Positions 1-36,975 of a stretch of DNA of 64,000 nt are shown one piece after another. The stretch's first letter is position 1, and each line of letters opens with the position of its first letter. The DNA is taken from contig CAZNWT010000004.1 of NCBI GenBank assembly GCA_964576795.1, forward strand, positions 35,707-99,706. The letters run 5' to 3'. The position numbers and the translations under genes are program-made. Origin of the DNA: an uncultured Victivallales bacterium. Its GTDB lineage: Bacteria > Verrucomicrobiota > Kiritimatiellia > UBA8416. The notes beneath the pieces were generated by a model, which saw only the letters and a program-made list of their open reading frames with translations, was not told where the DNA came from and ran no database searches.

Positions 1-584
1 AGCCCTGAAAACGTTTTGAGATACCCCTCTAAAAATACGTGGTTCTGCTGTGAACTTCCGACCTGCATCTGGTAGCGCGTTCTTCGCAGGGCGAGATACC
101 GGGTGCCGTCTGTTGGTTGCAGTTCTGGTTCTGAGGGCACAGCGCGTTCGTCGAAGAGGATCCGTATGCCCATCTCGTCACAGCCCTCCAGTTTTTGAAG
201 AAGGGTCTCGTACAGACTTTTTTTCTCCTCCAAAACGAGGTGGAGTGCCGACAGGCTCTCCAGAAAACAGCCGTAGCGCATAGGGATGACCGTCCGCATG
301 TGATGGAGCCCCTCGACGACTTTGCTGTATGCGAGAAGTTCGGAAACAGGTGGCGCGGTTTCCCCGGCGGCCAACTCCGACACGGCGGCGGCCAGTCCGT
401 GAGCGGTGACAAAGGATACGGTTTTCCCCATCATCCCTGTCATCTGCCCGACACTGACTGCCGGGGCTTTCATGAGGCAATAGACCAAGTAGGACATAGA
501 CTTATCCTTGCGTGTCCAAGACCGGGCTGAAATGGTAGGGTGGCCAAGGGCCGGAAGCTTCGAACGACAGGCCACTGGCTTCAT
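1..584 (-). CDS. GvpL/GvpF-family protein, second paralogue; C-terminus cut by window edge. Not in the supplied ORF track because the reading frame has no stop inside the window.
   Basis: I translated the minus strand myself. The frame is open from the TAA at 590..588 down to position 1. It reads ...WSICLMKAPAVSVGQMTGMMGKTVSFVTAHGLAAAVSEL...LLAYSKVVEGLHHMRTVIPMRYGCFLESLSALHLVLEEKKSLYETLLQKLEGCDEMGIRILFDER... This follows the same motif order as the upstream GvpF paralogue and the PF06386 consensus: YVYG-like strand, DLAAVVSEV, HHxVLE...VLPlRFGTVF, EWGVKVY. Start is ambiguous: ATG at 584 overlaps the upstream gene by 83 nt, ATG at 473 would start mid-motif. Confidence 0.6.
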   Translation of the reverse strand, partial: MKPVACRSKLPALGHPTISARSWTRKDKSMSYLVYCLMKAPAVSVGQMTGMMGKTVSFVTAHGLAAAVSELAAGETAPPVSELLAYSKVVEGLHHMRTVIPMRYGCFLESLSALHLVLEEKKSLYETLLQKLEGCDEMGIRILFDERAVPSEPELQPTDGTRYLALRRTRYQMQVGSSQQNHVFLEGYLKTFSG

Positions 585-1302
585 GCTTTACGTTCCACTC
601 GGCCGTCAGGCGTTGTAACCGCTCGACGGAACGGTCGGGAACGAGAAGTGCGGCATGGAAGAACATCTCGTCGCCTCTCCCCGTTAGATCCGGCGCCAGA
701 AGGCGACTGTCACTGAACGACGAGGTTACCTCCATGACCGACCTCGTCAGCTCTTCTGCTAAACCCTTGAGCCAGGTCTTCATCTCACGGTCCGCAGCCA
801 CTTTGAGTTTCTGTTCCTGGAAATAGCGCAGGCCTGGTGAAAGCCCTTCAAGCTGCTCATTTTCTGCCTCTAATCGTGTCGCTAAAATTTGTGCCCTGGC
901 TTTCGGCAGATCCGCATAGGCTTTAAGTGTCCATTCCTTCTGTCCCGCCGTTTCACTAAAAAACCGCGACAGAACCTTACGGTGCCGTTCCAGTGACGCC
1001 GCTAAAACCTCCAAGGAGGAAAAAACAGACCCGAAACGAACGGGCAACACGGGGGCCTGGCGCATGACCGACAGGATGACCTCTTCGTGACGCAGCGCCC
1101 GGGGTGCCACCCATGCGAGATCCGCCAACCGCTCGCGGGCCTCCAGCCCGCAAAAGTCCTCCAGTGAGACCTCAGAATAAAGTGCGACGGCATCGGCGCT
1201 GGTCTGGAGACAAAGGGGATACGCCACATCAATCCCCATTCCTTCTATTTTCAGAAGCGAGTTTTTCGGGGTCAGGCAGAAAAGATAGATCCCCAAGCTC
1301 AT
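502..1302 (-). CDS. GvpL/GvpF-family protein (gas-vesicle accessory protein family)
   Basis: 266 aa. N-terminus LGIYLFCL (YLYGI-like), ADAVALYSEV, WVAPRALRHEEVILSVMRQAPVLPVRFGSVF, EWTLKAYAD, and C-terminal GPWPPYHF, all characteristic of PF06386. Its ATG overlaps the stop of the upstream AAA gene (ATGA at 1299-1302). Confidence 0.8.
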   Translation of the reverse strand: MSLGIYLFCLTPKNSLLKIEGMGIDVAYPLCLQTSADAVALYSEVSLEDFCGLEARERLADLAWVAPRALRHEEVILSVMRQAPVLPVRFGSVFSSLEVLAASLERHRKVLSRFFSETAGQKEWTLKAYADLPKARAQILATRLEAENEQLEGLSPGLRYFQEQKLKVAADREMKTWLKGLAEELTRSVMEVTSSFSDSRLLAPDLTGRGDEMFFHAALLVPDRSVERLQRLTAEWNVKHEASGLSFEASGPWPPYHFSPVLDTQG

Positions 1303-3437
1303 CCCGGTCCTCTGTGTGCTTCGTTCAAGGCCTCTTCAATGTCCTGGCTCTGGATCAGGATTTCCGGTTCGCCTTCCGTATCCGTTCCGATGCTCTTTAC
1401 GGCCCCGCGCACCGCCGTCATGGCGGCTCTTCGCGCGACGCCAGCGATATCGGCCCCGCTGAAGCCCTCTGTTTTAGCGGCCAGCTCTGCAAAACAGATT
1501 CCTTTTGCCAGGGGTTTCTGCCGGAGATGGACGGCGAAGATCGCTTCCCGATCCTGCTCTCCGGGTTGGGTCATCTCGACAATGTCGTCGAACCGGCCCG
1601 GCCTGAGAACGGCGGTATCCAACATGTCTAGGCGGTTGGTGGCCCCCAAAACGAGAACGCCACGGAGCTCGTCGAGTCCGTCAAACTCCGCCAGAAACTG
1701 GCTCAGGAGCCGTTCGGAGACGTGCGAGTCCGAGGTTCCCGAACTGCGGGTCGCCACCAAAGCGTCGATCTCGTCAAAAAAGATAATGCACGGTGCCGCT
1801 TGCCTGGCTTTATGGAAAATCTCTCGGATACCCTTTTCTGATTCACCCACCCATTTTGACATCAGGGCGGGCCCTTTGACGGAGATGAAGTTGACCTGAC
1901 TCTCCGTGGCAATTGCCTTGGCGAGCATCGTTTTGCCGCAGCCCGGCGGGCCGACCAGCAGGATGCCCTTAGGTGGGGTCACGCCTCCCTTTTCGAAGAA
2001 GTGGGGATACTTCAGCGGCCATTCCACGGCCTCGACGAGGCGCTGTTTCAGCGAGGCGAGTCCGCCCACATCGTCCCAGTGGATATTGGGGGATTCTACG
2101 AAGACCTCGCGGATGGCGGACGGTTCGATCTCCCGCAGGGCAGTCAGGAAGTCGTCCATGCGCACGCTGAGTTTCGCTAACGTTTCGTAAGGGATCTCCG
2201 CCTTAGCGAAATCGATTTCCCCCATGATCTGACGGAGGCAGATCATGGCCGCCTCCCGGCAGAGCGCCTCGAGATCCGCGCCCACGAAACCGTGGGTGAT
2301 CGCAGCCAGATGCCCCATCTGGACGTCTTCGGCCAGAGGCATGCCCCGGCTATGAATCTCCAGAATCTCCAGCCGGCCCAGCCGGTCCGGAATTGGAATG
2401 ACGATCTCCCGGTCAAACCGGCCCGGTCGGCGTAGCGCTGGATCCAAGGCGTTGGGGATGTTGGTGGCGGCGATGACGATGACGTTCTGTCGCTTGTTTA
2501 GTCCGTCCATGAGGGCGAGAAGCTGGGCGACGACCCGCTTCTCCACATCGCCGACCACATTATCCCGCCGGGGGGCAATGGCGTCGATTTCGTCGATAAA
2601 GAGGATGCTGGGCCCTTTCTTGGTCGCCTCTTCAAAGATCTTCCTCAGGTGGGCTTCGCTCTCGCCGTAAAACTTGTGGATGATTTCCGGGCCGCTGATG
2701 GAAAAGAAGCTGGACTCGGTTTCATGGGCGATGGCGCGGGCGATCAGGGTCTTCCCGCATCCCGGCGGCCCATAAAGGAGAACCCCTTTGGGCGCTTCGA
2801 TCCCGAGCCGCTGGAAGACCTCGGGATAGCGCAGGGGCAGTTCGATCATCTCCCGGATGCGCTGGAGCTGGGATTTCAATCCGCCGATGTCTTCGTAGGA
2901 AAGGGTTCTGCCGCTGTCCTCCTCCTGACTCTTGCCAATCGCCAGCATGGTGCCTGGATGGATCAGTACCGGCCCCTTGGGGGTCACGGAGTCGACTTTG
3001 AAATAGGCGGACCGACTTCCGAACAGGGAGGCTTGAATCTTGGCACCCTCCAGGACCGGCAGGCCGTCCAGCAGGCTCCCGATGTACTTAAGATCCCGAT
3101 CCGCTGGCACAACGTTGAGCGGCGACAGGGTAACCCGATCCGCCGGACGGCATGCAATCTTGCGGATGCTCACCGGTTCGTCGAGATTTGCACCCGCATT
3201 TTCGCGGGTTGAACCGTCGAGCTGGACACGCGACTGGCCGCGTAGGTCAGCGTAGGCGGGCATGACCTTACAGACCGCCTTCCGCTTGCCCTCGACCTCC
3301 ACTAGGTCACCGACAGCGAGCTGAAGCTGCTTCAAGTCTTCTGGCCCCATCCGGGCAAAAGCCCGACCGACGTCTTTGGTCAAGGCTTCTGTTACTCTCA
3401 ACCTGACGACCGTTTCGCCCTTATCTTTCGCGGCCAT
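1299..3437 (-). CDS. Cdc48/VCP-like two-ring AAA+ ATPase (N-domain + D1 + D2)
   Basis: 712 aa. N-terminal Cdc48-N-like domain (VVRLRVTEA...DVGRAFARMGPEDL). Two AAA modules, each with Walker A GPPGCGKT, Walker B DEID and second region of homology. The stop overlaps the gvpF start. Confidence 0.9.
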   Translation of the reverse strand: MAAKDKGETVVRLRVTEALTKDVGRAFARMGPEDLKQLQLAVGDLVEVEGKRKAVCKVMPAYADLRGQSRVQLDGSTRENAGANLDEPVSIRKIACRPADRVTLSPLNVVPADRDLKYIGSLLDGLPVLEGAKIQASLFGSRSAYFKVDSVTPKGPVLIHPGTMLAIGKSQEEDSGRTLSYEDIGGLKSQLQRIREMIELPLRYPEVFQRLGIEAPKGVLLYGPPGCGKTLIARAIAHETESSFFSISGPEIIHKFYGESEAHLRKIFEEATKKGPSILFIDEIDAIAPRRDNVVGDVEKRVVAQLLALMDGLNKRQNVIVIAATNIPNALDPALRRPGRFDREIVIPIPDRLGRLEILEIHSRGMPLAEDVQMGHLAAITHGFVGADLEALCREAAMICLRQIMGEIDFAKAEIPYETLAKLSVRMDDFLTALREIEPSAIREVFVESPNIHWDDVGGLASLKQRLVEAVEWPLKYPHFFEKGGVTPPKGILLVGPPGCGKTMLAKAIATESQVNFISVKGPALMSKWVGESEKGIREIFHKARQAAPCIIFFDEIDALVATRSSGTSDSHVSERLLSQFLAEFDGLDELRGVLVLGATNRLDMLDTAVLRPGRFDDIVEMTQPGEQDREAIFAVHLRQKPLAKGICFAELAAKTEGFSGADIAGVARRAAMTAVRGAVKSIGTDTEGEPEILIQSQDIEEALNEAHRGPG

Positions 3438-3440
3438 GCG

Positions 3441-4139
3441 TCACCCAGCCTTTCCGCAACGAATCGTCACGATGCCATTGTTACAGGTCACCTGGAGTCG
3501 TTCTTTGGAAAGAAGATGCCCCAGAAGCATTTCCTTCCGGTACTTCTTCTCGCCCTTTTTAGCGGAGATTGTCAGCACGTCATCCTGGACCTCGATCTGG
3601 ATGTCATCGGGGCCAACACCTGGCATTTCCGCCACAAGGGTGGTGGCGTCTGCCTCCTCGAATACGTCGACCAAGGGTTCGCTGATCTCCTGCACCACCA
3701 CCTCGCCGGTGGCCTTGTCCTTGCGGACGTTGCCAAAAGGTTCGACCCGAATATCGTCGCCCTTATCTCCCAGCCCCGTTTTTATGGTGAAGCCATAGAC
3801 CGCTTTGCCTCCGCCGTCTTTCGAGGAGAAGTTGAAATTCCCATTCTCCGACACGGTTCCGCCCTTTTCCGAAACCTCTTCGAGTTTCCTGGCAAGGTCG
3901 GCCAGACCGTTCAGTATCCCCCCGGCGCTCTTTTCACCCGTCGTCTTTTTGTCGGCCGAGCCTGCGGTCTCCTCCGTTCCGCTGGCGGAAGACTCCGTTT
4001 TGCGATGCGACAACCGCTCCGCCGCCTCGGTCAGTTTTCCCAAGGAACCCAGCAACCCCGTCAGGCCGCCGAGTAGCGCGCCGCCGCAGTCCACCTGCGC
4101 TTCATCCTTTTTGTCAGATGTAGTCTTGCTATTCTTCAT
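3441..4139 (-). CDS. Hsp20/alpha-crystallin family small heat-shock protein with long disordered N-terminal region (GvpH-like)
   Basis: 232 aa. C-terminal ACD (PLVDVFEEADATTLVAEMPGVGPDDIQIEVQDDVLTISAKK...IVTIRCGK). Strong RBS AAAGGAGAG 5 nt upstream. 3 nt from the AAA gene start. Confidence 0.85.
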   Translation of the reverse strand: MKNSKTTSDKKDEAQVDCGGALLGGLTGLLGSLGKLTEAAERLSHRKTESSASGTEETAGSADKKTTGEKSAGGILNGLADLARKLEEVSEKGGTVSENGNFNFSSKDGGGKAVYGFTIKTGLGDKGDDIRVEPFGNVRKDKATGEVVVQEISEPLVDVFEEADATTLVAEMPGVGPDDIQIEVQDDVLTISAKKGEKKYRKEMLLGHLLSKERLQVTCNNGIVTIRCGKAG

Positions 4140-5566
4140 CGTTCTCTCCTTTGGGCTTGGATGCCCAGTTTTTTTGTTTTGTTGTGCATGGTCTTGTAAT
4201 CGATTTGCAACAGTCTTGCCGCCTTGGCCTTGTTTCCGCCGGTGTATTGCAGAACGCCGGTAATCACAGTCCGTTCCACCTCGGCCACGCTCCGCGTCAC
4301 AACGTCCCGAAGCGACGCGCTCTTCCAGGGAGCCCCGTCTTCTGGCGGCACCACAGAGGCCGCGAAAGACACTTCAGCAGCGAGGCCAAGCTCCTTTTCG
4401 GTGATGGCACTCGTGCCCTGGACCAGCACCGCAGCCCGCCGGATCACCGACCGGAGTTCACGGACATTCCCCGGCCAACGGTAAGCGATCAGAGCTTCAA
4501 TCGCCGCATCCGAAAGTACAAGTCCGTTCTTGCCCAGTTCGACTGCGGTTACGTCCAGAAACCGTTTCGCCAGAAAAAGGACATCCTCTTTCCGATCCCG
4601 GAGCGCAGGGATCTGAATGGCAAAGTCGCACAAGCGATAATACAGATCCTCGCGGAAAGTGCCCGCGATGACCATTTCGCGCAGAGCCATGTTGGTGGCG
4701 GCGATCAGCCGGAAATCCACTTCGATGGGCTTCGTTCCGCCGACCCGGTTCACCACCTTGTTTTGGATCGCCCGCAGCAGTTTCGCCTGGGAACTGTAGG
4801 GCAGATTGGCGATCTCATCCAAAAACAGGGAACCGCCGTGAGCCACCTCGAACTTACCCGTTTTCTGCCGGTCCGCGCCGGTAAACGAGCCTTTCTCGTG
4901 TCCGAACAGTTCGCTTTCCAGCAGCGCCTCGGGGATGGCTCCGCAATCGACTATAACAAAGGGCGCGCGGCCCCTCGCGCTGTTCCGGTGAATGGCCTCG
5001 GCCACCAGATCCTTGCCCGCGCCCGTTTCGCCCATGATAAGCACGGAAAAGTCAGTTTGCGACACACGCTGGACATCCGCCGTGATCCGGGCAATGGCCT
5101 CCGAGTGCCCCATGCTCTCGAAAAGAGTCAGATACTCCTGTGCAATCTCCGTCGATTTCCTCAAGGGTTTCTTCAGTTTCGTTTCCGACAAGGCCCGCAG
5201 GGTGATCTTGGCGACTTCTTGGTTGTCGAAGGGCTTTGCAATGTAATCGTAGGCTCCGTCCCGCATGGTTTCGACGGCCTGACGAATGTCCGCATAAGCC
5301 GTAATGAGGATGACGGGCAGGCTGGCATCAGTTTCCCTGATCTTCTTAAGGACTTCGACGCCATTCATGCCTGGCATGCGGACATCGAGAAGAACGACCG
5401 ACGGCGCGGCAGCGGGAGAGCGGAGCTTCTCCAACGCCTGACAACCGTCGGCGGCGGTAGTGACCTTTATCCCCACCTTTTCCAGAATATGCCTCAGATT
5501 GTCACGAGAATCCTCCTCGTCATCGACAATCAGTGCGCAGAAGCGGTTTTCGTCAATTGTTTTCAT
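4136..5566 (-). CDS. NtrC-family sigma-54-dependent response regulator (REC + sigma-54 AAA+ + Fis-type HTH)
   Basis: 476 aa. Receiver domain (LLDVRMPGMNG), Walker A GETGAGKD, GSFTGA (GAFTGA variant), C-terminal HTH. The stop overlaps the hsp20 start (ATGA). Confidence 0.9.
   Translation of the reverse strand: MKTIDENRFCALIVDDEEDSRDNLRHILEKVGIKVTTAADGCQALEKLRSPAAAPSVVLLDVRMPGMNGVEVLKKIRETDASLPVILITAYADIRQAVETMRDGAYDYIAKPFDNQEVAKITLRALSETKLKKPLRKSTEIAQEYLTLFESMGHSEAIARITADVQRVSQTDFSVLIMGETGAGKDLVAEAIHRNSARGRAPFVIVDCGAIPEALLESELFGHEKGSFTGADRQKTGKFEVAHGGSLFLDEIANLPYSSQAKLLRAIQNKVVNRVGGTKPIEVDFRLIAATNMALREMVIAGTFREDLYYRLCDFAIQIPALRDRKEDVLFLAKRFLDVTAVELGKNGLVLSDAAIEALIAYRWPGNVRELRSVIRRAAVLVQGTSAITEKELGLAAEVSFAASVVPPEDGAPWKSASLRDVVTRSVAEVERTVITGVLQYTGGNKAKAARLLQIDYKTMHNKTKKLGIQAQRRER
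4195..4225 (-). promoter_or_regulatory. candidate sigma-54 (-24/-12) promoter for hsp20-cdc48-gvpF-gvpF, embedded in the 3' end of the activator gene
   Basis: Minus-strand sequence cGGCAaG-actg-TTGCAaa (plus 4220..4206) versus consensus TGGCACG-N4-TTGCW. Invariant GG and GC are separated by exactly 10 nt. About 65 nt upstream of the hsp20 ATG. rpoN and a sigma-54 activator are both in the window. Confidence 0.5.
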
Positions 5567-6047
5567 AGTGTATTGGTTTGCCAGTTCAGTTCGAGAACCA
5601 ATGCCTTAAGAATATTTAGTACCTCGTAGGCAAATACGCCAAACACAATCGTAGGCGGATGGGTCGAACTGTTTTCGGCCTTGTCTGACTCTCGTTTCAT
5701 ACGCAACTCCTGACATGGTTGTATTACCATGCGAGTTTCCGCGCAAGCAGATTAATTTACAGTCTTATGAGAAGGCATGTCAAATTCAATAATCCGGCAC
5801 GGCGGATACGGGGCGCATTTCATCTCTGCGGGGATTCCGGCCTTCTTTCTGTCGTGAGGAAAGAGCCAATGCCAGCGAGAAGGATCTACCCCTTTATTGC
5901 GAAGCTCCTCGGTTTCTCCCCACCAGTAATTCTGAATCGCAATCGGGGCAGCGCATCTGCTGTTGATCCGAAACCAATTGCGCGCCATACCTGAGAATCG
6001 GGCGCGCCAGCTCTTTAGCGCTCTCCTCGTTATCCGTTCTCGTCGCC

Positions 6048-6077
6048 GTTCTCGTCAATCGTCTTCATGGTGTATTG
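6048..6077 (-). repeat. duplicated copy of the activator's translation-initiation region, forming a 12-codon mini-ORF MKTIDENGDENG
   Basis: 26/30 nt identical to 5546..5575 (caatacacYATGAARACRATTGACGARAAC). All four differences are third-position transitions. The ATG overlaps the stop of ORF 6065..6697 (ATGA). Confidence 0.5.
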
Positions 6078-6697
6078 AGCCCGCTTATCCGGTCATTCAG
6101 AAGATTCCCGAGAGGAAAAAGAACCTGTATGTCCGGCGGCAGGCGGGCAACAGGATTGTGCAGCATCCCCAGGAAAAGGAGGCCTGTTTCCCCGGCCTGT
6201 AGGGTCTGCCCGATTCTTTCCGCGATGAACGCGTCCCGCTTTTCCAAGAGCACGTCGCTGGTTTCTTTCTGCTCGGCCTTGAGCCTCAGGGATTCTTGGG
6301 GATTTTTAGCCCCGAGAAGCTTTTTGGCAAGCTGATATTCCTGGATCAACAGGTCTGCGGATTCCGTGCCCATGATCGTCGCGCCCTTTTCTTTGAGTCG
6401 GAGAAGAAGCTGGTGGTTTGGGCTGCCCTTTTTCGCAATATCCTCAACAATCTCTGCTTCCTTGTCGCAGATCGGCAGTCCATCCTGGTATACTCGGGTC
6501 TTTGCATATGGAAGCGCAAGGTCATGTAAGACGATCTTTTCTACGCTCGACCAAAACTGCCCGACCAAATCAAGTTTGCGCCGCCATCCGCGCCGCCCGA
6601 GTTTTTTCTGCGTGGCCTTCAAGATGGACTGCCCGAGATTGCCCATCTCCGACTGGCTGTGTATGATCGGAAAGTAAAATATCCTTCTTTCACTCAT
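6065..6697 (-). CDS. hypothetical protein (210 aa, soluble, no recognisable motif)
   Basis: Long ORF, co-directional with the fabFG upstream. Confidence 0.5.
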   Translation of the reverse strand: MSERRIFYFPIIHSQSEMGNLGQSILKATQKKLGRRGWRRKLDLVGQFWSSVEKIVLHDLALPYAKTRVYQDGLPICDKEAEIVEDIAKKGSPNHQLLLRLKEKGATIMGTESADLLIQEYQLAKKLLGAKNPQESLRLKAEQKETSDVLLEKRDAFIAERIGQTLQAGETGLLFLGMLHNPVARLPPDIQVLFPLGNLLNDRISGLNTP

Positions 6698-19826: not shown

Positions 19827-22800
19827 TCACTTTCGATTTTCCCAGCGGCGGCGATTGTTGTCCGGTTCCCCATTTTTGAGTGGGGCTTGTCTGGCCTTGA
19901 CGAATACTGTGTTTTCGCCCAGTTCGTGTTCCAGTTCGTGTATGAGGCTGATGTCCGGAAGTACGTTAAAAGCATTATCCGTATTGATCATGACTTTTTC
20001 CCCTGAGGGAAATACCAAGCAGATGACGACGGGGATGGAGCCGGGGTGCAAGCGAAGAATGCATTTTACATTTGCAAGCGTTGCATCGAGTTGCGTGCAT
20101 GAGATGTGGAGGCTGACGCATTCGGAGAAATGCTTTGGTGCATCTTCGAGGAGGACTATTTCGTGCGCAATGAAGCTGGGGACTTCCCCTTTTTTGGAGA
20201 CTTCGCCGCCAATTAAAAGGGGGACGTCATTATTCAGAATGGCAGCATACTTTCGGAAGGTGTCGGGCCATACCAGCACTTCGATTGAGTTCTCCAGATC
20301 TTCGAACTGAACAATCGCCATCATCTCTTTCTTTTTGGTTGCCTTCTTCGTCACGATGGATGCAAGCCCACCGACGCGGGAGAGTGCATGATCTTCAAGG
20401 TCAGGGATCCCCGCAATTGTTGTTAAACAATACTGCTTAAGTATGAACTCATATTGGGTCAGTGGGTGCCCACTCATATAGATACCCAAAAGCTCACGTT
20501 CAGCAGCCAACTGCTCGTTCTCATGCCAGGGTTCACATTCTGGAAGATCTCCTTCAGTGGCTGCGCTGACGTCTTCGTCGCTGGCCATCAGGTCAAATAG
20601 GTTTCCCTGCCCGGACTCATGATCCCGTTGTGCTTCTGCCGCACGGGCCATGGCGAATTCGATACCATTAAAAATTTTTGCGCGGTGTTGTTTGGCGTCA
20701 TCCAAGGCCCCGCATCGCGCGAGGCTTTCCATGGATTTCTTGTTTACGTCCTGGGTGTCTACGCGCGAGCAGAAATCCATCAGAGAGGTAAAGGGACCGT
20801 TTGCTTCTCGTTCTGCGATAATTGCCTTTGCGGCCCCTTCTCCCACGTTTTTGATGCCTGCCAGTCCATAGCGGAGTCCTTCCCCTTCGGGTTTGAATCT
20901 GCATCCGCTGTGATTGACATCGGGTGGCAAGATCTTGAGGCTCATCTCTTCAGCTTCGCGGATAAATACTGGCATTTTATCGAAATTTCCGATTTCAGAT
21001 GAGATCAGCGCTGCCATGAACTCGGCGGGATAGTTGGCCTTTAGATAGGCGGTCTGATAGCAGACAATTGCATAGCCAGCGCTGTGAGCTTTGTTGAATC
21101 CGTAGCCGGCAAATTTGGCAATATTATCAAAGATACGTCCCGCAAGGTCAGCATTGATCGCGTTTGTGTCCTTGCAGCCTTTGATGAACTTTGCCCGCTG
21201 CTGGTCCATCACTTCGGCCTTTTTCTTGCCCATGGCCCGCCGCAGAATGTCTGCTTCTCCGAGTGAGTAGCCTGCCAGCACATTCGCTGCCTTCTGGACC
21301 TGTTCCTGATAGACCATGACGCCGTAGGTGTCTCTGAGAATAGGTTCAAGAAGGGGATGGTCATTCTTGATTTCGGATTCACCACACTTGCGGGCAATAT
21401 AGTCTGGAAGCATATTCATGGGGCCGGGACGATAGAGGGCAATGACCGCGATGATTTCCTCAATGTTATTGATGCCGATCCGACGGATGAGATCTCGCAT
21501 GCCGCCACTTTCTAATTGGAAGACGCCAACGGTGTCTGCCCGACTCAAAAGCGCGTAAGTTTTGACATCGTCAACGGGAAGTGTTGCCAGATCAATTTTG
21601 ATCCCATGCCCTTCGGCCACCAGATCGACTGTTTCCTGAATAACAGTGAGGGTTTTGAGTCCAAGAAAGTCCATTTTCAGGAGTCCAATTTCCTCGACCG
21701 GTTCTTTTGCGAACTGCGTGACGGGCTGTTTGTTTTTATCTCTTCCTAGTGGGATAATGTTAATCAATGGCTCCTCGCCAATCACCACGCCGGCGGCATG
21801 GGTTCCCGGGTTGCGATAGAGACCCTCAAGCACCGTGGCGTGCTTCATGATAGCCATGAGATCTTCATCTTGCTCTGAGGCCTTCTTGAAATCCGGACTC
21901 ATCTCAAGTGCAAGTTTCAGCTTCATCTTTGGATCATCCGGAATCATCTTGGTAAACTCGTTACACTTGCTGAACGGAATCTCGAGTACGCGACCGACGT
22001 CGCGAACGACTGTTTTCGCACCAAGGGAACCAAATGTAATGATCTGGGCAACATGATCTGAGCCATACTTTTCTTTTACGTACTGAATCACCTCTTCGCG
22101 CCGGGCTTGGCAGAAGTCGATGTCGAAGTCCGGGGGAGATACACGCTCCGGGTTCAAGAAACGTTCAAAGATGAGGCTATATTTGAGTGGATCAATGCTA
22201 ATGATACCAAGGGAGTAGGCGATGATACTGCCCCCCCCAGATCCGCGTCCCGGTCCCACCGGGATGTTATGATCCAAGGCGTAGCGGATGAAGTCCCAGA
22301 CGACGAGAAAGTAGTTGATGAATCCCGTTTTCTCGATCACTCCGAGTTCCATGTTGAAGCGATCCATCACCTCTTTTTCGGTTGCATCGCGAGGGTGTTC
22401 AGGATTCTGGATGTTGTATAGCTTTTTGAGTCCTTCGTGTCCGAGTTGGATGAGATAGCTTTTTTGGGTCATGCCTTTTGAAACGGTGTAGGTAGGGAAG
22501 TGCAGCTTTCCAAATTCCATTTCAACGTTACAGCGATCGGCAATGTCGGCAGTGATGTCCACGGCACCTGGAAATTCGCCGAAGAGTTTGTCCATTTCAG
22601 CGCGGGTTCTGAGGTAGAACTGGTCGGTGCTGTAGCGCATCCGTTTGGGGTCACTTATGACGGTGCCGGTTTGCATGCAAAGCATGATTTCGTGTGCCGC
22701 CGCGTGCTCGCGTTTCAAGTAGTGGACGTCATTGGTTGCCACAATGGGGAGGTTGGTCTTACGGCTGAGTTCCAGCATATACTTGTTAGCCCGCCGCTGT

Positions 22801-23357
22801 TCTGGGATGCCGTGGTCCATGACTTCAATGAAGAAATTGTCTTTTCCGAAGATGTCAGAATATTCCCCTGCGGCTTGAATCGCTCCGGGGACATCATCGT
22901 TGGCCAGGTGTGAAGTCACCTCGCCCTTAAGGCAGGCGGAAAGACCGATGAGTCCCTTCGCATGTTCTGCAAGGAGTTCCTTGTCAATCCGGGGTTTGTA
23001 ATAGAACCCTTCCAGATGGGCTTTGGAGATTAGATAACTGAGGTTCTTGTAGCCCTCGTTATCCTTTGCCAACAACACCAAGTGGTGCGTATTCTGGCGT
23101 TGGCCCTCGACATTTCGATCATGGTGGCTCCCCAGTGTGATATAGGACTCGCACCCGATAATGGGTTTTATTCCTTTTGCGAGGGCTGCTTTGTAGAACT
23201 CCACTGTGCCATACATGACGCCATGATCAGTCATGGCGACTGCTGGCATTCCTAATTCGGCGACATTGTCGATGAGCTCGCTAATACGGCAGGCGCCGTC
23301 GAGCAAACTGTATGCCGTGTGAAGATGAAGATGAACGAATGGCCGCATAGTGTCCAA
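19827..23357 (-). CDS. dnaE: DNA polymerase III alpha subunit
   Basis: 1176 aa. N-terminal PHP domain (HLHLHTAYSLLDGA), polymerase core, OB-fold. Confidence 0.95.
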   Translation of the reverse strand: MDTMRPFVHLHLHTAYSLLDGACRISELIDNVAELGMPAVAMTDHGVMYGTVEFYKAALAKGIKPIIGCESYITLGSHHDRNVEGQRQNTHHLVLLAKDNEGYKNLSYLISKAHLEGFYYKPRIDKELLAEHAKGLIGLSACLKGEVTSHLANDDVPGAIQAAGEYSDIFGKDNFFIEVMDHGIPEQRRANKYMLELSRKTNLPIVATNDVHYLKREHAAAHEIMLCMQTGTVISDPKRMRYSTDQFYLRTRAEMDKLFGEFPGAVDITADIADRCNVEMEFGKLHFPTYTVSKGMTQKSYLIQLGHEGLKKLYNIQNPEHPRDATEKEVMDRFNMELGVIEKTGFINYFLVVWDFIRYALDHNIPVGPGRGSGGGSIIAYSLGIISIDPLKYSLIFERFLNPERVSPPDFDIDFCQARREEVIQYVKEKYGSDHVAQIITFGSLGAKTVVRDVGRVLEIPFSKCNEFTKMIPDDPKMKLKLALEMSPDFKKASEQDEDLMAIMKHATVLEGLYRNPGTHAAGVVIGEEPLINIIPLGRDKNKQPVTQFAKEPVEEIGLLKMDFLGLKTLTVIQETVDLVAEGHGIKIDLATLPVDDVKTYALLSRADTVGVFQLESGGMRDLIRRIGINNIEEIIAVIALYRPGPMNMLPDYIARKCGESEIKNDHPLLEPILRDTYGVMVYQEQVQKAANVLAGYSLGEADILRRAMGKKKAEVMDQQRAKFIKGCKDTNAINADLAGRIFDNIAKFAGYGFNKAHSAGYAIVCYQTAYLKANYPAEFMAALISSEIGNFDKMPVFIREAEEMSLKILPPDVNHSGCRFKPEGEGLRYGLAGIKNVGEGAAKAIIAEREANGPFTSLMDFCSRVDTQDVNKKSMESLARCGALDDAKQHRAKIFNGIEFAMARAAEAQRDHESGQGNLFDLMASDEDVSAATEGDLPECEPWHENEQLAAERELLGIYMSGHPLTQYEFILKQYCLTTIAGIPDLEDHALSRVGGLASIVTKKATKKKEMMAIVQFEDLENSIEVLVWPDTFRKYAAILNNDVPLLIGGEVSKKGEVPSFIAHEIVLLEDAPKHFSECVSLHISCTQLDATLANVKCILRLHPGSIPVVICLVFPSGEKVMINTDNAFNVLPDISLIHELEHELGENTVFVKARQAPLKNGEPDNNRRRWENRK

Positions 23358-29980: not shown

Positions 29981-30580
29981 TCAATGCAGGAAACGATTTG
30001 AATCAAGGCCCTCTCGTTGAAGCAAGATAGACTTGAGTGGGGGGCCGCCATTTGCTGAGAATCCTCCGAGTTTTCCGTTTGCACCGGTGACGCGATGACA
30101 GGGGACGATGGGAGGGATTGGGTTATTCTTCATCAACGCCCCCACGGCACGCGCTGCGCCGGGGCTTCCTACGGCGGATGCAATTTCACCATAGGTGATG
30201 GTTTTTCCGTATGGGATCTTCATTAAGGTGCCGTAGACCCGTTTGGCAAATGGAGTCCAATCTGTATCATCAATGGGAACCTTTGTACGGGGGGGGGCGT
30301 CGCCGGAGATCCTGTTGACGAAGTGTTGCTTCCAAGTGTTGAGTATGGCTTCACATTGTCGCGTTTGTTTGCAGCTCTCCTGAGGGGAGCATGCAAGTTG
30401 ATTTTGCAGTTGGATCAACGCTTCTGCTTCGGAGTCATACATGTAAGTTGAACGCCTCAGCCCGAGGTGGGTGAGTGCAAAACTCAGCCATCCCAGCTTG
30501 GTTTGAACGGCGTCGACCAGAATGGTGTGGCCGTTCATCTTGGGAATGTGAAGTGTCATTCTGCGGGTTCTTCCAGCCAA
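29981..30580 (-). CDS. ogt: methylated-DNA-protein-cysteine methyltransferase
   Basis: PCHRV active-site motif in the C-terminal domain. Confidence 0.8.
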   Translation of the reverse strand: MAGRTRRMTLHIPKMNGHTILVDAVQTKLGWLSFALTHLGLRRSTYMYDSEAEALIQLQNQLACSPQESCKQTRQCEAILNTWKQHFVNRISGDAPPRTKVPIDDTDWTPFAKRVYGTLMKIPYGKTITYGEIASAVGSPGAARAVGALMKNNPIPPIVPCHRVTGANGKLGGFSANGGPPLKSILLQREGLDSNRFLH

Positions 30581-32268
30581 AGGTGTTTGTAGGGGTGATG
30601 ATCCAGCAGGGTGGAGTGCCAGCCTCTGACTGAGGGCTGGATCAGCGATTTGCTGCGGTAGAAGTAGATGGGCATGATGGGCGATTCATCCATAAGGATT
30701 TTCTCGGCTTCCTGAAAGAGGGAAAACCGCGCTTTGGAATCTAGGGTTTCGGATGCCTTGCGGATGAGTGCGTCATAGTCCAGATTTGACCAGCCGGTGC
30801 GGTTGTTGCCGCCATCAGTTACCCACAGATCCAGAAAGCTGTTAGGGTCCATGTAGTCTCCAATCCAGCCCGCTCGCGCAATATCGTAGTTGCCGGATTG
30901 GGTTTGGGCCAGGTAGACCTTCCACTCCATGTTGACCAGTTCAATATCAATGCCAAGCCCCGTTGCCCACATTTGCTGCAGAACTTCGGCAATTTTAGCA
31001 TGAGAGTCGGCCGTGTTGTAAAGCACGGAAAGCTTTGGGAAGCCTTTGCCATTTGGAAACCCGGCTTCAGTAAGGAGTGCGCGGGCGTCATCAAGCGTGC
31101 CCCCAATTTTTGCAGTGGCCGTGTATCCGCCGGTGTTGGGCGGAGTGAAGTTGTAGGCCGGTTCTTCATCAGCGCGGGTGACAAATTTGGTGATCTGGTC
31201 GCGGTTAATAGCTAAGGAAAGCGCCCGGCGCACTTTTGGGTTATCCAGCGGTGGTCGGTTGACGTTGAAGAGGTAATAGTAGCACCCTAAGTAGGGATCC
31301 AAACGGAGCCGTTCGGGATGGCGCGTCTTGTAGTAGCTAATTCTGTCAATGGGTACCGTTCCTGTTACATGGAGTTGACCGGAGCGAAATGCATGCTCTT
31401 CAATGGTGTGGTCACCGATGGGGTAGAAGTGAATGGCGTTGAGCTTCACGGTGCGGCGATCCCAGTAGGTCGTGCTTTTGCTTACCGATATCTGTTTGTT
31501 GGGTTGCCAATCGGTAAGGACGAAGGGCCCGTTGCCTACAAAGTTTTCCGGTTTTGTCCACTGGCTTCCAATTGAGGCGATATCACCATGAGCTAGAACG
31601 GTTGGCGGATGAACGGGGAACCAGGAAAAATGGTTAAGCAACGACAGAAAATAGGGCGTTGGGGCTCTCAGGGTGAGCTGCAGCGTTTTGGGATCAAGCG
31701 CCTTGGCGCCGACCTTCGTAAAGTCGGATAGTGTTTCGCGGTTATAGGCTTCGGCATTTTCAAGGCAGAAGAGCATGTATGCATAGGGACTGCCAAGTGC
31801 CGGTGTCAGTATCCGCTTATAGGAGAAGATGAAGTCATCGGCCGTTACCGAGTCGCCGTTTGACCAGTTGGCCTCAGGGCGTATATGAAAGGTGTATACA
31901 CAGCCATCCGGTGAGATCTCCCAGTGGTTTGCGGTGCCGGCAACGGGTTCCAGTGTTTCGGGATCTTCAGAGACAAGCCCTTCCAGAAGTGCCGATATGA
32001 TGTTGTTCTCCGTGACGCCTGTTACGAGATGTGGATCCAGATCTTTGGGTTCCGAACTATTACCCAGATGGAGGACCTGTGTGCGATTGCCGAGCTGAAC
32101 GCGCGTTTCGCGTTTGCTACAACCAGAGCTGAGGAGGAGTAAAGCAGAAATTAATAAAAGGAAGGAGCCGTGAAGTATTAAATGTCGAAGAATGTCGAGA
32201 TGTTTAGGTCGGTGATGCTTGATTTCGAATTTCGAATATTGAATTTCCAATTTACTTACATTACTCAT
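30556..32268 (-). CDS. ABC peptide transporter substrate-binding lipoprotein (family 5)
   Basis: 570 aa, SBP_bac_5 fold, lipobox LLLSSGC after an unusually long N-region. Confidence 0.8.
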   Translation of the reverse strand: MSNVSKLEIQYSKFEIKHHRPKHLDILRHLILHGSFLLLISALLLLSSGCSKRETRVQLGNRTQVLHLGNSSEPKDLDPHLVTGVTENNIISALLEGLVSEDPETLEPVAGTANHWEISPDGCVYTFHIRPEANWSNGDSVTADDFIFSYKRILTPALGSPYAYMLFCLENAEAYNRETLSDFTKVGAKALDPKTLQLTLRAPTPYFLSLLNHFSWFPVHPPTVLAHGDIASIGSQWTKPENFVGNGPFVLTDWQPNKQISVSKSTTYWDRRTVKLNAIHFYPIGDHTIEEHAFRSGQLHVTGTVPIDRISYYKTRHPERLRLDPYLGCYYYLFNVNRPPLDNPKVRRALSLAINRDQITKFVTRADEEPAYNFTPPNTGGYTATAKIGGTLDDARALLTEAGFPNGKGFPKLSVLYNTADSHAKIAEVLQQMWATGLGIDIELVNMEWKVYLAQTQSGNYDIARAGWIGDYMDPNSFLDLWVTDGGNNRTGWSNLDYDALIRKASETLDSKARFSLFQEAEKILMDESPIMPIYFYRSKSLIQPSVRGWHSTLLDHHPYKHLWLEEPAE

Positions 32269-33254
32269 ATTTCATCCTTTCGGATGCAGGCGACAAGTTG
32301 CCTGCTGTTGTTTTCGATATTGAGGGGGGTAAGATAGGGCCGTTCTTGAGAGCATTGTTCTATGGCATACGGACAGCGGGGATGAAAGGGACAGCCAGAA
32401 GGCGGGGAGGCAGGGGATGGCACATCCCCTCTGAGCACGATTCGATCCTGGTGAGGTTGCCCGGCTTTGGGAATTGCCGATATTAGGGCTCGGGTGTAGG
32501 GGTGTTGCGGATGTTCCATGATATCTTGTGTGCTGCCAGATTCGACAATGCGGCCCAAGTACATGACGGCAATCCGATCTGAGATGTGTCGAACCACATT
32601 AAGGTCGTGTGAGATAAAGAGATAGGCGAGTCCATACTTTTTTCTCAGGTCCATGAGGAGGTTCATGACTTGGGCCTGAATGGAGACGTCAAGAGCGCTG
32701 ACGGCTTCATCACAGATGATGAGTTCGGGGTGTAGGGAGATGGCTCGGGCGATGCTAATACGCTGGCGTTGCCCTCCAGAAAATTCGTGGGGATATCGGT
32801 GTAGAGCATCTTGTCCGAGTCCGACATCTTCCAGAAGGCCACTGACGGCCTCTTGTCTTTCTCGCCTGCGAATGATGCCGTGCTCAATCATCCCTTCGGA
32901 TACGATGTCGAGTACCGTCATGCGGGGGTTGAGTGAGGAAAAGGGGTCTTGAAAGATGACCTGCAATTGCCGTCGAAGCGGTTGGATTTTCGAGCGCGGA
33001 CTTGAGAGCATTTCGATATCTTTGAATTGAATGTGTCCGGAGTGTGCTTTGTCGAGCAGCAGAATGGTGCGGGCCAGGGTTGTTTTGCCACAACCGGATT
33101 CTCCAACAAGTCCTAGCGTTTCGCCGGGATTCATGGTGAGGCTGACGCCATCGACAGCACGGATCTGTCCCACCGTTCTTGAAAAGACCCCCCGCCGAAT
33201 GGGAAACCAGGTCTTGAGATTCTTAATCTCAAGCAGTGGATCCTCTCCCACGGT
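32265..33254 (-). CDS. oppF: oligopeptide ABC transporter ATPase (OppF-type)
   Basis: Walker A GESGCGKTT, signature LSGGQRQR, C-terminal oligo_HPY. Start set at GTG (VGEDPLLEIKNLK). The track's 33356 start overlaps oppD. Confidence 0.85.
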   Translation of the reverse strand, partial: TVGEDPLLEIKNLKTWFPIRRGVFSRTVGQIRAVDGVSLTMNPGETLGLVGESGCGKTTLARTILLLDKAHSGHIQFKDIEMLSSPRSKIQPLRRQLQVIFQDPFSSLNPRMTVLDIVSEGMIEHGIIRRRERQEAVSGLLEDVGLGQDALHRYPHEFSGGQRQRISIARAISLHPELIICDEAVSALDVSIQAQVMNLLMDLRKKYGLAYLFISHDLNVVRHISDRIAVMYLGRIVESGSTQDIMEHPQHPYTRALISAIPKAGQPHQDRIVLRGDVPSPASPPSGCPFHPRCPYAIEQCSQERPYLTPLNIENNSRQLVACIRKDEI

Positions 33255-33304
33255 TTCTGATTCTCTATTTCTGATTTCTGATTTGCCATTTCTAAGTTTC
33301 TCTC

Positions 33305-34321
33305 TCATGGGTTTTCCTCTGCGAGAAAGCAACGGATACTGCGGTCGCCGTGACAATAGAGAGGGGGGTGATCTTGTCGGCAGCGGTCAAAGGCGTAGTG
33401 GCAACGATCTTGAAAATGGCACCCTTTTGGATAGTCACCTGGCGAGGGGACTTGGCCGGGAATGGCGGGGAGATGTTCGCCGGGCAGGACTTTTCCAGGG
33501 ATGACAGCGATGAGGGCTTTGGTGTAGGGGTGGATGGGATCCTTGAACACTTTATCCACGGTGCCGGTTTCCACGATCTCGGATGCGTACATGACGGCGA
33601 TATGGCTACACATCTCCCAGATGACGCCCATGTCATGTGTGATGAGTAGCATGGAGGTGTCCTTCTTGCGCATACCGCGAATGAGATCAAAGATTTGGGC
33701 TTGAATAGTGACGTCCAGTGCCGTTGTGGGTTCATCGGCAATGAGAAGTGCCGGATAGAGCATGAGTGCCATGGCGATCATAACGCGCTGCCGCATTCCT
33801 CCAGAGAGTTGGTGAGGATAGGCATACATGCGTTCAGACGCATCGGGTATTCCAACCTTTGTTAACCATCCCTCAGCAGTCTTCCATGCCTCGCGGCGAC
33901 TCAGATTGCCTCTTTTGTTTGGGGGCAGGTTGTTGACGGTTCTGCTTGTGGTTGGATGCATTCGAAGGGCTTCTACGAGCTGAGCTCCAATGCGCTGAAG
34001 CGGGGATAGTGCCGTCATGGGTTCTTGAAAAATCATGCTGATTGCGTTGCCGCGAATTCTTTGCATCTTTTCAATCGGAAGCTGTAGCAGGTCCTCCCCC
34101 TCGTAGAAAATTGAGCCACCGTCAATTTGCCCGGGAGGGGTCGGGAGCAGGCGCAGAATGCTCATGGCGGTGACTGACTTGCCACAGCCAGATTCACCCA
34201 CGAGTCCGAGCACATCACCCTTCTGTATCGAAAGTGAGACGTTGCTTACGGCAGGAGTGACATCCCCATCGCTGCTGCGAAATGAGACGGACACATTTTG
34301 AATTTCCAGAAGCGGTTTCAT
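33305..34321 (-). CDS. oppD: oligopeptide ABC transporter ATPase (OppD-type)
   Basis: Walker A GESGCGKSVT, LSGGMRQR. Start at MKPLLEIQNVSVSF. Confidence 0.85.
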   Translation of the reverse strand: MKPLLEIQNVSVSFRSSDGDVTPAVSNVSLSIQKGDVLGLVGESGCGKSVTAMSILRLLPTPPGQIDGGSIFYEGEDLLQLPIEKMQRIRGNAISMIFQEPMTALSPLQRIGAQLVEALRMHPTTSRTVNNLPPNKRGNLSRREAWKTAEGWLTKVGIPDASERMYAYPHQLSGGMRQRVMIAMALMLYPALLIADEPTTALDVTIQAQIFDLIRGMRKKDTSMLLITHDMGVIWEMCSHIAVMYASEIVETGTVDKVFKDPIHPYTKALIAVIPGKVLPGEHLPAIPGQVPSPGDYPKGCHFQDRCHYAFDRCRQDHPPLYCHGDRSIRCFLAEENP

Positions 34322-34322
34322 G

Positions 34323-36961: not shown

Positions 36962-36975
36962 AGCGAACTGTAAGG

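Follow-up and report, generated by a model that had tools for sequence, protein, structure and literature searches.

A CDC48-encoding operon in a PVC-superphylum bacterium as the probable accessory and regulatory part of a gas-vesicle cluster of the Serratia type

The minus-strand genes at positions 1–5566 of the window (the whole 64,000-nt stretch of DNA that was analysed), together with the gene at 6065–6697, most likely make up the operon for accessory and regulatory functions in a gas-vesicle cluster of the Serratia type, carried by a bacterium of the PVC superphylum. For this explanation as a whole, including the mechanism proposed below, the probability is put at roughly 0.85. The same joint explanation makes the gene order correspond, in all likelihood, to (gvpY)-gvrA-gvpH-gvpZ-gvpF2-gvpF3, followed beyond the window by gvrB, a PAS histidine kinase, and gvrC, a receiver-only protein. 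This is a known type of gas-vesicle gene cluster in a new, uncultured host, represented by a metagenome contig, and not a new kind of organelle. The window's DnaE is closest to Verrucomicrobia, Kiritimatiellia and Lentisphaerae genomes, in agreement with the PVC-like host proposed in a first-pass annotation of the window, and the nearest relatives of the cluster are Victivallales genomes.

The operon looked odd only because the window edge cuts the cluster. The main value of the analysis is corrective: a supposed possible new organelle system is best read as the known accessory operon of a gas-vesicle cluster. The novelty suggested for it does not stand, as operons laid out in this way had been published between 2011 and 2016 for Serratia and for other proteobacteria.

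The operon and its link to the shell genes

The five minus-strand genes encode an NtrC-type activator, an Hsp20 protein, an N-D1-D2 CDC48 ATPase and two GvpL/GvpF paralogues (Table 1). Pfam bears out all five domain assignments of the first-pass annotation, and TIGR01243 does so again for CDC48. ATGA overlaps join NtrC/Hsp20 and CDC48/GvpF and a 3-nt gap separates Hsp20 from CDC48, as previously noted, but the GvpF/GvpF gap is 4 nt and not 3. A 498-nt gap upstream of the NtrC gene holds a candidate sigma-70-type promoter, located by a consensus scan. Upstream, the gvrA-like gene is adjoined by the conserved 210-aa gene, for whose product a ChaN/TraB-like fold (EreA/ChaN/TraB, TIKI-like superfamily) is predicted. 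The five-gene arrangement is not a product of chance, as dozens of genomes show these genes in an identical order.

Table 1. Features of the accessory operon and its upstream region, in window positions
Feature	Position	Strand	Remarks
gvpF3-like GvpL/GvpF paralogue	1..497	-	window edge cuts gene; first 165 of 238 codons inside, ATG at 497
gvpF2-like GvpL/GvpF protein, 266 aa	502..1302	-	PF06386, 155 bits
gvpZ-like CDC48/VAT-type double-ring AAA+ protein, predicted unfoldase, 712 aa (N, D1, D2)	1299..3437	-	TIGR01243
gvpH-like small heat-shock protein, 232 aa	3441..4139	-	PF00011 above cut-off
gvrA-like NtrC-type sigma-54 enhancer-binding response regulator, 476 aa (REC, AAA+, HTH_8)	4136..5566	-	
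candidate sigma-70-type promoter (TTGACA, 18-nt spacer, TAAATT)	5754..5783	-	10 of 12 consensus matches; consensus match only
conserved gvp-cluster gene, 210 aa, no family assignment, predicted ChaN/EreA/TraB-like fold	6065..6697	-	

The activator matches Response_reg (106 bits), Sigma54_activat (225.7 bits), AAA_lid_14 and HTH_8 (40.6 bits) in Pfam, and a GSFTGA loop of the GAFTGA type is readable in its translation. The GvpF protein at 502–1302 scores 155.1 bits with PF06386 over profile positions 1–244 of 245 (cut-off 23.6) and matches the solved GvpF 6l5d weakly; the motifs LPVRFG, GPWPPY and EWTLKAY are readable in the GvpF translation. The second paralogue, which had been recovered by hand translation, belongs to the same family, as its window-cut copy reaches 87.1 bits and the complete 238-aa copy on the parent contig 137.4 bits against that cut-off.

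The parent contig, a 106-kb metagenome assembly found via an exact protein match, continues past position 1 with the remaining codons of the second GvpF, followed by genes for a PAS histidine kinase and a receiver protein, a predicted sigma-54 promoter and then gvpA. The structural operon lies on the same strand, in the order gvpA, a 150-aa gene, gvpN, three small genes, gvpF1, gvpG, an ArsA-like ATPase, gvpJ/S-like, gvpK and gvpJ-like. Here, gvpA starts about 2.4 kb beyond position 1, and gvpA, gvpN, gvpG, gvpK and the gvpJ-type genes all lie within about 2.4–9.5 kb of that position. In NCBIfam, GvpA scores 135.6 bits with NF006874 (cut-off 100) and GvpN is genuine, with 329.7 bits for TIGR02640 (cut-off 266.8), while GvpG and GvpK have Pfam matches. 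The accessory operon is linked to gvpA and to the core genes gvpN, gvpF, gvpG, gvpK and gvpJ/S by sharing both contig and strand. The shell genes are where the first-pass annotation had guessed, beyond position 1, and its gas-vesicle link and its parallel to Serratia GvrA are upheld. A chimeric parent contig is unlikely because two independent assemblies (L001 and L002), as well as dozens of other genomes, agree on the join between the operon and gvpA.

The sigma-54 promoter appears to sit at gvpA and not at the accessory operon. A sigma-54 element, TGGCAT-N5-TTGCT, is found 119 nt before gvpA on the parent contig, and similar -24/-12 elements occur in most related loci at 62–119 nt from gvpA, the majority at 83–104 nt, so that the conserved element falls some 60–120 nt before the first gvpA. 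Scores of at least 18 for this element were obtained for 34 of 68 gvpA upstream regions, compared with 3 or 4 of 70–74 regions in front of the NtrC and Hsp20 genes and 11 of 64 in front of the gene for the 210-aa protein. The five genes had been described as a sigma-54-driven operon, but no -24/-12 element was found in front of the NtrC gene or in front of the gene that precedes it, where only the sigma-70-like site is seen. In Serratia, transcription of gvpA1 requires GvrA, GvrB and GvrC.

Conservation and comparison with known clusters

Synteny was followed in 80 species genomes or loci with a CDC48 at least 70% identical to that of the window (70–87%), which span more than 10 phyla. Genes for gas vesicles are present at 75 of the 80 loci. 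Of 72 informative loci, 71 have Hsp20 upstream of CDC48, and an NtrC-type gene lies upstream of Hsp20 in 69 of 80. The adjacency of GvpF and CDC48, which the first-pass annotation had marked for profiling in other genomes, is seen in 68 of the 70 loci whose downstream flank is long enough. Dozens of genomes carry this cluster in full, and the housekeeping genes that flank it are not conserved, whereas the cluster itself is. Within it, only GvpA is more conserved than the CDC48 clade. On a Methylocella plasmid, a CDC48 with 52% identity is also accompanied by Hsp20 in a gvp cluster.

The likeness to Serratia extends to the same seven gene types in the same order (activator, Hsp20, GvpZ, GvpF2, GvpF3, kinase, receiver), to translationally coupled junctions, including the ATGA overlap at gvpZ/gvpF2, and to a GvpY-like gene directly upstream of gvrA. 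In Serratia, an NtrC-type activator, a kinase and a receiver control a separate gvpA operon, and the like is predicted for the cluster described here. The two differ in that the operon order is inverted here, with the accessory operon upstream of the gvpA operon, an order also reported for Psychromonas and Desulfomonile. In addition, the structural operon contains an ArsA-like ATPase and three small genes; no counterpart of GvpW or GvpX was identified. The host, too, is a PVC bacterium and not an enterobacterium.

Other clusters are less similar. The ArsA/Hsp20 gvp clusters of Chlorobi, Bacteroidetes, Geobacter and Acidobacteria likewise combine a two-domain ArsA homologue and Hsp20 with gvpN, L/F, G, J and K, but the passages retrieved on those clusters name neither a CDC48 gene nor regulators (Castillo and Saier 2010, PMC2963123). 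The haloarchaeal cluster (gvpACNO / gvpDEFGHIJKLM) shares GvpF and GvpL paralogues, GvpH, GvpN and GvpA/J/M-type proteins; it differs in being regulated by GvpD/GvpE and not by sigma-54 with an NtrC-type activator, and in having no CDC48 gene.

The CDC48 and Hsp20 proteins

The 712-aa CDC48 protein scores 877.9 bits with TIGR01243 in NCBIfam (cut-off 802.65), and in Pfam it matches CDC48_N (77.1 bits), CDC48_2 (32.2 bits), two AAA and two AAA_lid_3 domains. Its best solved relative is Thermoplasma VAT (5g4f, E 1e-208). Walker A (GPPGCGKT) and the arginine finger (RPGRFD) each occur twice, Walker B reads ILFIDE and IIFFDE, and each ring has one aromatic pore loop (KFYGESE and KWVGESE). The protein resembles VAT and archaeal CDC48 (PDB 5g4f, 5vc7) in its N-D1-D2 architecture, in all catalytic motifs and in the aromatic pore-loop residues of both rings. 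It differs in being bacterial and encoded in a gas-vesicle cluster, and a C-terminal HbYX motif, the type of tail used for docking to the 20S proteasome, was looked for and is absent.

This CDC48 is very probably the counterpart of GvpZ, present in addition to GvpN and not in its place, as judged by gene order, short primer-derived peptides and cluster size. The first-pass annotation had it that the ATPase of the cluster is instead a Cdc48, a reading that the genuine GvpN of the same cluster overturns, CDC48 being an extra gene at the place of Serratia gvpZ. Peptides derived from published Serratia primers map to the proteins, and to the places in them, that were predicted: the start of D2 in 12 gvp-linked CDC48s contains VRWEDV without mismatch, and PPYNFA, from the gvpF3 primer, is exact near the C-terminus of gvpF3-type orthologues, although six-residue matches can arise by chance, as GvpF orthologues also gave a score of 32 with the peptide of an unrelated gvpC primer. 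The Serratia primers gvpZ_3R and gvpF2F overlap, which places the 3' homology arm within gvpZ. In the open-access literature searched, GvpZ and GvpY are labelled 'unknown function' and CDC48 is never named together with these clusters.

The Hsp20 protein has an N-terminal half rich in Gly, Lys, Ser, Thr and Glu (composition of residues 1–150), followed by a C-terminal alpha-crystallin domain. Residues 160–204 match PF00011 with 27.6 bits (cut-off 20.8), an alignment covering only profile positions 3–47 of 102, and the NCBIfam archaeal Hsp20 model gives 114.9 bits, below its cut-off of 140. A Pfam scan at E up to 0.01 returned no GvpH family match. The name gvpH is used here in the Serratia sense only, for an Hsp20 in that position, and not for haloarchaeal GvpH.

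Possible roles of the accessory proteins

In the proposed mechanism, the PAS kinase and receiver protein would pass a signal to the NtrC-type activator, which would open the sigma-54 promoter of the gvpA operon. The two GvpF paralogues would serve as assembly factors for the GvpA shell; in Serratia both gvpF2 and gvpF3 are essential. The Hsp20 (GvpH) and the CDC48/VAT-type unfoldase (GvpZ) would act as a holdase-unfoldase pair that maintains GvpA/GvpJ-type proteins, which are very hydrophobic and prone to aggregate, in an assembly-competent state. Alternatively, the pair might dismantle shell material that has misassembled or collapsed, passing it through the two active rings. In either case it would work without a partner protease. 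This chaperone role is inferred, and the dispensability of gvpH and gvpZ in Serratia counts against it.

It is conceivable, and put forward tentatively, that GvpH and GvpZ form a machine dedicated to amyloid-like shell proteins, whose clade spread with the cluster over more than 10 phyla, and that GvpY-like is a so far unrecognised hydrolase partner with a ChaN/TraB fold. The 210-aa protein itself is the probable counterpart of Serratia gvpY. If the GvpH-GvpZ machine is real, it would provide a bacterial Cdc48 outside Actinobacteria with a defined physiological client. A GvpZ that is very probably a VAT-like CDC48 paired with Hsp20 offers a testable idea of how cells handle an extremely aggregation-prone shell protein. 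Deletion of gvpH or gvpZ leaves vesicles in Serratia, and in E. coli it reduces or abolishes the vesicle signal, which makes the pair relevant to acoustic reporter gene engineering.

Hsp20 and CDC48 could instead be a general stress and protein-quality-control pair that serves the whole proteome and merely sits beside gvp genes. A haloarchaeal (Natrinema) plasmid has an overlapping Hsp20-AAA(CDC48) gene pair without gvp genes, which means that the pair is not by nature confined to gas-vesicle clusters. Locus L044 similarly retains NtrC, Hsp20, CDC48 and the 210-aa gene although the 10 kb downstream contain no gvp gene, and the dispensability of both genes in Serratia points the same way. This explanation is nevertheless unlikely, given the place of the CDC48 clade between Hsp20 and GvpF within gvp clusters of so many phyla, its start and stop codons that overlap or nearly abut those of its neighbours, the variable housekeeping flanks and the lowered vesicle output in E. 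coli when gvpH or gvpZ is deleted.

Rather than handling shell proteins, CDC48 might act as a regulatory unfoldase that removes or remodels GvrA, GvrC or a GvpF and thereby adjusts how many vesicles form. Its gene belongs to the regulatory operon, with the activator gene on one side and the genes of the kinase-receiver pair on the other, and in haloarchaea the NTPase GvpD lowers the amount of the activator GvpE, a loose parallel. This too is improbable, as the regulators are essential in Serratia, where no effect on vesicles is reported for gvpZ deletion, and the close association with an Hsp20 holdase suggests clients that tend to aggregate.

The first-pass suggestion of a new proteinaceous shell, or of a GvpF module unrelated to buoyancy, with a CDC48 segregase replacing GvpN, drew on a window that holds no gvpA or gvpN and on a CDC48 unusual in textbook gvp clusters, and it is now highly implausible, as gvpA and then a standard gvp set follow past position 1, an outcome that the first-pass annotation had itself named as refuting, the full cluster is repeated elsewhere and its layout equals the published Serratia operon. 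Victivallales-like PVC bacteria of stratified lakes carry complete clusters of this type, so that buoyancy control in anoxic waters is likely to be more widespread.

The gas-vesicle cluster beyond the window edge

The minus-strand operon at the start of the window belongs to a gas-vesicle cluster that continues beyond position 1. The five genes and their assignments, as made in the first-pass annotation, proved accurate by ORF listing, translation, Pfam and TIGR01243. Four complete minus-strand ORFs are present in the ORF list, while the frame of the second GvpF was obtained by translation from 503 downwards, with an ATG at 497 on the minus strand and 165 codons up to the window edge. The 712-aa protein exceeds the TIGR01243 (CDC48) threshold (877.9 bits versus a cut-off of 802.65). 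The ATGA overlaps at the NtrC/Hsp20 and CDC48/GvpF junctions and the 3-nt Hsp20/CDC48 gap were also described correctly; the gap between the two GvpF genes is 4 nt, not 3. A 45-codon ORF (5563-5700, minus strand), whose stop overlaps the NtrC start (ATGA), is a gene in the annotation of the public contig and has no counterpart among the related loci; probably it is either no gene at all or a lineage-specific leader. No Rfam families were found in the window.

Features of the gas-vesicle cluster (window coordinates unless marked L001, the parent contig)
Feature	Length	Location	Strand	Family match or position
Conserved gene before the NtrC gene	210 aa	6065-6697	-	no Pfam or NCBIfam match
NtrC-type activator	476 aa	4136-5566	-	Pfam Response_reg, Sigma54_activat, HTH_8
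Hsp20	232 aa	3441-4139	-	Pfam HSP20
CDC48	712 aa	1299-3437	-	Pfam CDC48_N, CDC48_2, two AAA, two AAA_lid_3
GvpF	266 aa	502-1302	-	Pfam GvpL_GvpF, 155 bits
Second GvpF, cut by window edge		1..497	-	Pfam GvpL_GvpF, 87 bits
Second GvpF, complete	238 aa	L001
PAS-PAS-HisKA-HATPase kinase	505 aa	L001
Receiver-only protein	141 aa	L001
gvpA	72 aa	L001, ~2.4 kb past position 1		NF006874, 135.6 bits (cut-off 100)
gvpN		L001		TIGR02640, 329.7 bits (cut-off 266.8)
Two-domain ArsA-type ATPase	674 aa	L001:17829-19853		between gvpG and a gvpJ/S-like gene

An exact-sequence look-up found the 266-aa GvpF to be identical on the metagenome contig ena:ERZ27316330:k141_341661 (L001; 106,852 bp), and the protein is also present in an independent Logan assembly (L002). 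Window positions equal 11303 minus the L001 position. Past position 1, L001 carries on the same strand, in order, the remainder of the second GvpF, the kinase, the receiver, gvpA, a 150-aa gene whose product is without any family match and gvpN. These are followed by three small proteins, a third GvpL/GvpF, GvpG, the ArsA-type ATPase, a 63-aa GvpA/J-type protein, GvpK and a 104-aa GvpA/J-type protein. As GvpN, CDC48 and the ArsA-like protein lie in one cluster, three different ATPases are encoded.

The first-pass annotation had raised a possibly novel gas-vesicle or shell system built on Cdc48, and had itself named a standard gvpA-containing cluster past position 1 as an outcome that would refute novelty. 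Such a cluster is what the extended contig contains, and the more exciting reading arose because the window edge cut it. The cluster adds a new example, from a PVC bacterium, to a type of gas-vesicle cluster that is known and widespread.

Distribution of the CDC48 locus and the probable Serratia counterpart

The CDC48 scan covered GTDB r232 with one genome per species, and the best 80 loci (CDC48 identity 70-87%) were compared for synteny by tblastn. The queries were the 21 genes called on L001 4606-20751, comprising 20 cluster proteins and the unconserved 45-codon ORF. Gvp-family genes are present in 75 of the 80 loci, and four of the remaining five are contigs ending near the CDC48 gene. Of the 70 loci with 1.5 kb or more of sequence downstream of CDC48, 68 have GvpF after it, and Hsp20 stands before it in 71 of the 72 with 1.2 kb or more upstream. 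This adjacency rules out that CDC48 is a housekeeping gene lying nearby by chance, a possibility that the first-pass annotation had set as a check on its own reading. The window genes on either side of the cluster (ketoacyl synthase, SDR, PilT-like and LptF/G) have no synteny with the related loci and thus lie outside the system. One delta-proteobacterial locus on a 22-kb contig (L044) keeps the 210-aa gene, NtrC, Hsp20 and CDC48 and has no GvpF or GvpA within 10 kb downstream; it is the sole long locus of that kind among the related loci, possibly a cluster that has split or decayed.

Among the best 80, the closest CDC48 hosts are Victivallales and Lentisphaerae (86-87%). The others include Syntrophales and other Desulfobacterota, Geobacter, Acidobacteriota, Spirochaetota, Nitrospinia, Omnitrophota, Rokubacteria, Methylomirabilia, Sumerlaeota, Verrucomicrobiota and a Clostridia bin; among the named carriers are Desulfomonile and Desulforhopalus vacuolatus DSM 9700, a gas-vacuolate isolate. 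Median identity to the proteins of the window cluster is 96% for GvpA, 73% for CDC48, about 50% for the regulators, and falls to 36-38% for the pair of GvpF paralogues. The ArsA-type ATPase is found in 28 of the 80 loci, and its association with gvp clusters was recorded in 2010 (PMC2963123). L001 has a single gvpA, versus two or three tandem near-identical copies after the receiver gene in many Desulfobacterota (tandem loci L008, L012, L015-L017, L019, L020, L024-L026, L045 and L075, one of which is a Victivallales locus).

Two plasmid loci bear on the origin of the Hsp20-CDC48 pair. On plasmid p1 of the alphaproteobacterium Methylocella tundrae (L083, 143327-157435), a 52%-identical CDC48 and an Hsp20 stand at one end of a gvp cluster whose genes are arranged differently. 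A plasmid of the haloarchaeon Natrinema thermotolerans (L084) has Hsp20 and CDC48 as an overlapping pair but lacks gvp genes. The two loci suggest that the pair is an older two-gene module, which was recruited to gvp clusters.

The gas-vesicle cluster of Serratia sp. ATCC 39006 consists of two operons (Tashiro et al. 2016, PMC4982088). The series NtrC, Hsp20, CDC48, GvpF, GvpF, kinase, receiver is identical on L001 to that of the Serratia accessory operon (gvrA, gvpH and gvpZ, then gvpF2 and gvpF3, then gvrB and gvrC), whereas the two operons stand in inverted order. GvpZ is labelled "unknown function" in the Serratia papers and has no annotation in the supplements of the acoustic-reporter paper. 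Serratia is not among the best 80 CDC48 loci, and the comparison rests on peptides encoded by the primer table (PMC4982088) in place of full protein sequences. In that table, the gvpZ_3R and gvpF2F primers overlap, which places the 3' homology arm used to delete gvpZ wholly within that gene and makes the gvpZ-gvpF2 junction an ATGA overlap. The arm starts at GTGCGTTGGGAAGATGTCGG, coding for VRWEDVG, and 12 of the best 80 gvp-linked CDC48s have a D2 module that begins exactly with VRWEDVGG. The terminal peptide of the gvpH 3' arm, QFFTIS, has its best match in the D1 segment KFFTVS (about residue 243). Elsewhere, PPYNFA (gvpF3) maps to the second GvpF, RRKLEL (gvpF3 3' arm, extending into gvrB) to the kinase and ATKPI (gvpH 5' arm, within gvrA) to the NtrC-type protein. 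Six-residue matches are individually weak, an unrelated gvpC primer peptide having scored 32 against GvpF as the false-positive level; the exact matches fall in both the protein and the position expected from gene order. Gene order and the encoded peptides together identify Serratia GvpZ, with good though incomplete confidence, as the CDC48-type ATPase of the window cluster. In the open-access literature searched, no paper linked gas vesicles with Cdc48, the VCP/p97/AAA+ papers returned were on eukaryotic p97 only, and nothing useful appeared on a Psychromonas gas-vesicle ATPase.

Candidate promoters and the 210-aa GvpY-like gene

The operon had been described as sigma-54-driven. Neither the NtrC gene nor the conserved 210-aa gene before it is preceded by a -24/-12 element, and the only promoter candidate in the 498-nt gap before the NtrC gene is a sigma-70-like TTGACA-18-TAAATT site (5783-5754). 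The predicted element instead precedes gvpA: TGGCATACATATTGCT lies at L001:13588-13603, 119 nt before the gvpA start and about 2.3 kb past position 1. In most related loci a comparable element lies before the first gvpA, at 62-119 nt and mostly 83-104 nt. A sigma-54 score of at least 18 (maximum 20) was reached in 34 of 68 gvpA upstream regions, compared with 3 or 4 of 70-74 upstream of NtrC/Hsp20 and 11 of 64 upstream of the 210-aa gene. The predicted element agrees with Serratia, where GvrA, GvrB and GvrC are all needed for gvpA1 transcription. Some lineages, unlike that of the window, have a second sigma-54 element 200-300 nt before the first gene of the accessory operon. A loose sigma-54-like string, CGGCAAGACTGTTGCA, lies inside the end of the NtrC gene, 82 nt ahead of the Hsp20 start; it is not counted as a promoter because it is protein-conserved coding sequence and lacks the T of TGGCA.

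The 210-aa gene lies immediately before the NtrC gene in 63 of the best 80 loci. Its product has 1786 database homologues, and among the 120 listed all source-given names are "hypothetical protein". The AlphaFold model, made with 39 sequences, is confident (mean pLDDT 86.5, pTM 0.81), and Foldseek of the model against the PDB gave no significant match. Comparison of the protein returned ChaN (2g5g; 9.8), HopBA1 (8.8), the EreA-like protein 2rad (8.2), a TraB-family protein (7.9), a Pasteurella toxin chain (2ebf; 7.8), RRSP (7.1) and EreC (6.7), all of which we take to be of the EreA/ChaN/TraB (TIKI-like) superfamily. H13 is present in at least 90% of the 39 sequences, while E112 (GTES) and H180 (FLGMLH) are invariant, a pattern that appears consistent with the motifs of this superfamily. 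The Serratia gvpY 5' primer encodes LIHFPI, whose best matches are the N-termini of 210-aa orthologues (LIHIPI, LIYFPI), and gvpY is immediately upstream of gvrA. On the strength of this match and position, the 210-aa protein is probably the counterpart of GvpY, whose deletion lowered vesicle output in E. coli.

Proposed working, host and remainder of the window

Composition, gene order, linkage and promoter consensus are direct observations, from which a mechanism may be inferred. Signals from the soluble PAS kinase and from the receiver would reach the NtrC-type activator (REC, AAA+ with a GSFTGA loop, HTH), which would then open the gvpA sigma-54 promoter. The two GvpF paralogues, both essential in Serratia, may act in shell nucleation or assembly.

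Hsp20 and CDC48 would form a holdase-unfoldase pair. The N-terminal half of Hsp20 is long and rich in Gly/Lys/Ser/Thr/Glu. The nearest relative of CDC48 is Thermoplasma VAT (E 1e-208), and both rings have complete Walker A/B motifs, arginine fingers and aromatic pore loops (KFYGESE and KWVGESE). Since the C-terminus (...NEAHRGPG) is without an HbYX-type end, CDC48 probably acts without the proteasome. The most plausible clients would be GvpA/GvpJ-type proteins, which are highly hydrophobic, in misassembled form or derived from collapsed vesicles. In published work, deletions of gvpH and gvpZ leave Serratia with vesicles and in E. coli reduce or eliminate the signal, which fits an auxiliary chaperone. 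Less well supported are the readings of Hsp20/CDC48 as a general stress module and of CDC48 as a regulatory unfoldase. The remaining interest of the cluster lies in what the Hsp20/CDC48 (GvpH/GvpZ) pair does and in the role of the predicted ChaN/TraB-fold GvpY-like protein.

The host, described at first pass as PVC-like, is placed there by DnaE (19827-23357), whose best matches come from genomes under the labels Verrucomicrobia (87%), Kiritimatiellia (69%) and Lentisphaerae (61-66%), and by the nearest gvp clusters among the best 80, which are in Victivallales/Lentisphaerae genomes from stratified lakes. The open-access literature yielded no relevant paper on gas vesicles in Lentisphaerae or Victivallales; several Lentisphaerae genomes in public databases already carry this gvp cluster. 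Elsewhere in the window, two large ORFs of 729 and 559 aa (60116-62305, plus strand, and 52221-53900, minus strand) have no Pfam match, a secretin gene lies at 53906-55726 (minus strand), and two family-5 solute-binding proteins stand on either side of an ORF run within 30556-38832 (minus strand), probably a peptide ABC transporter.
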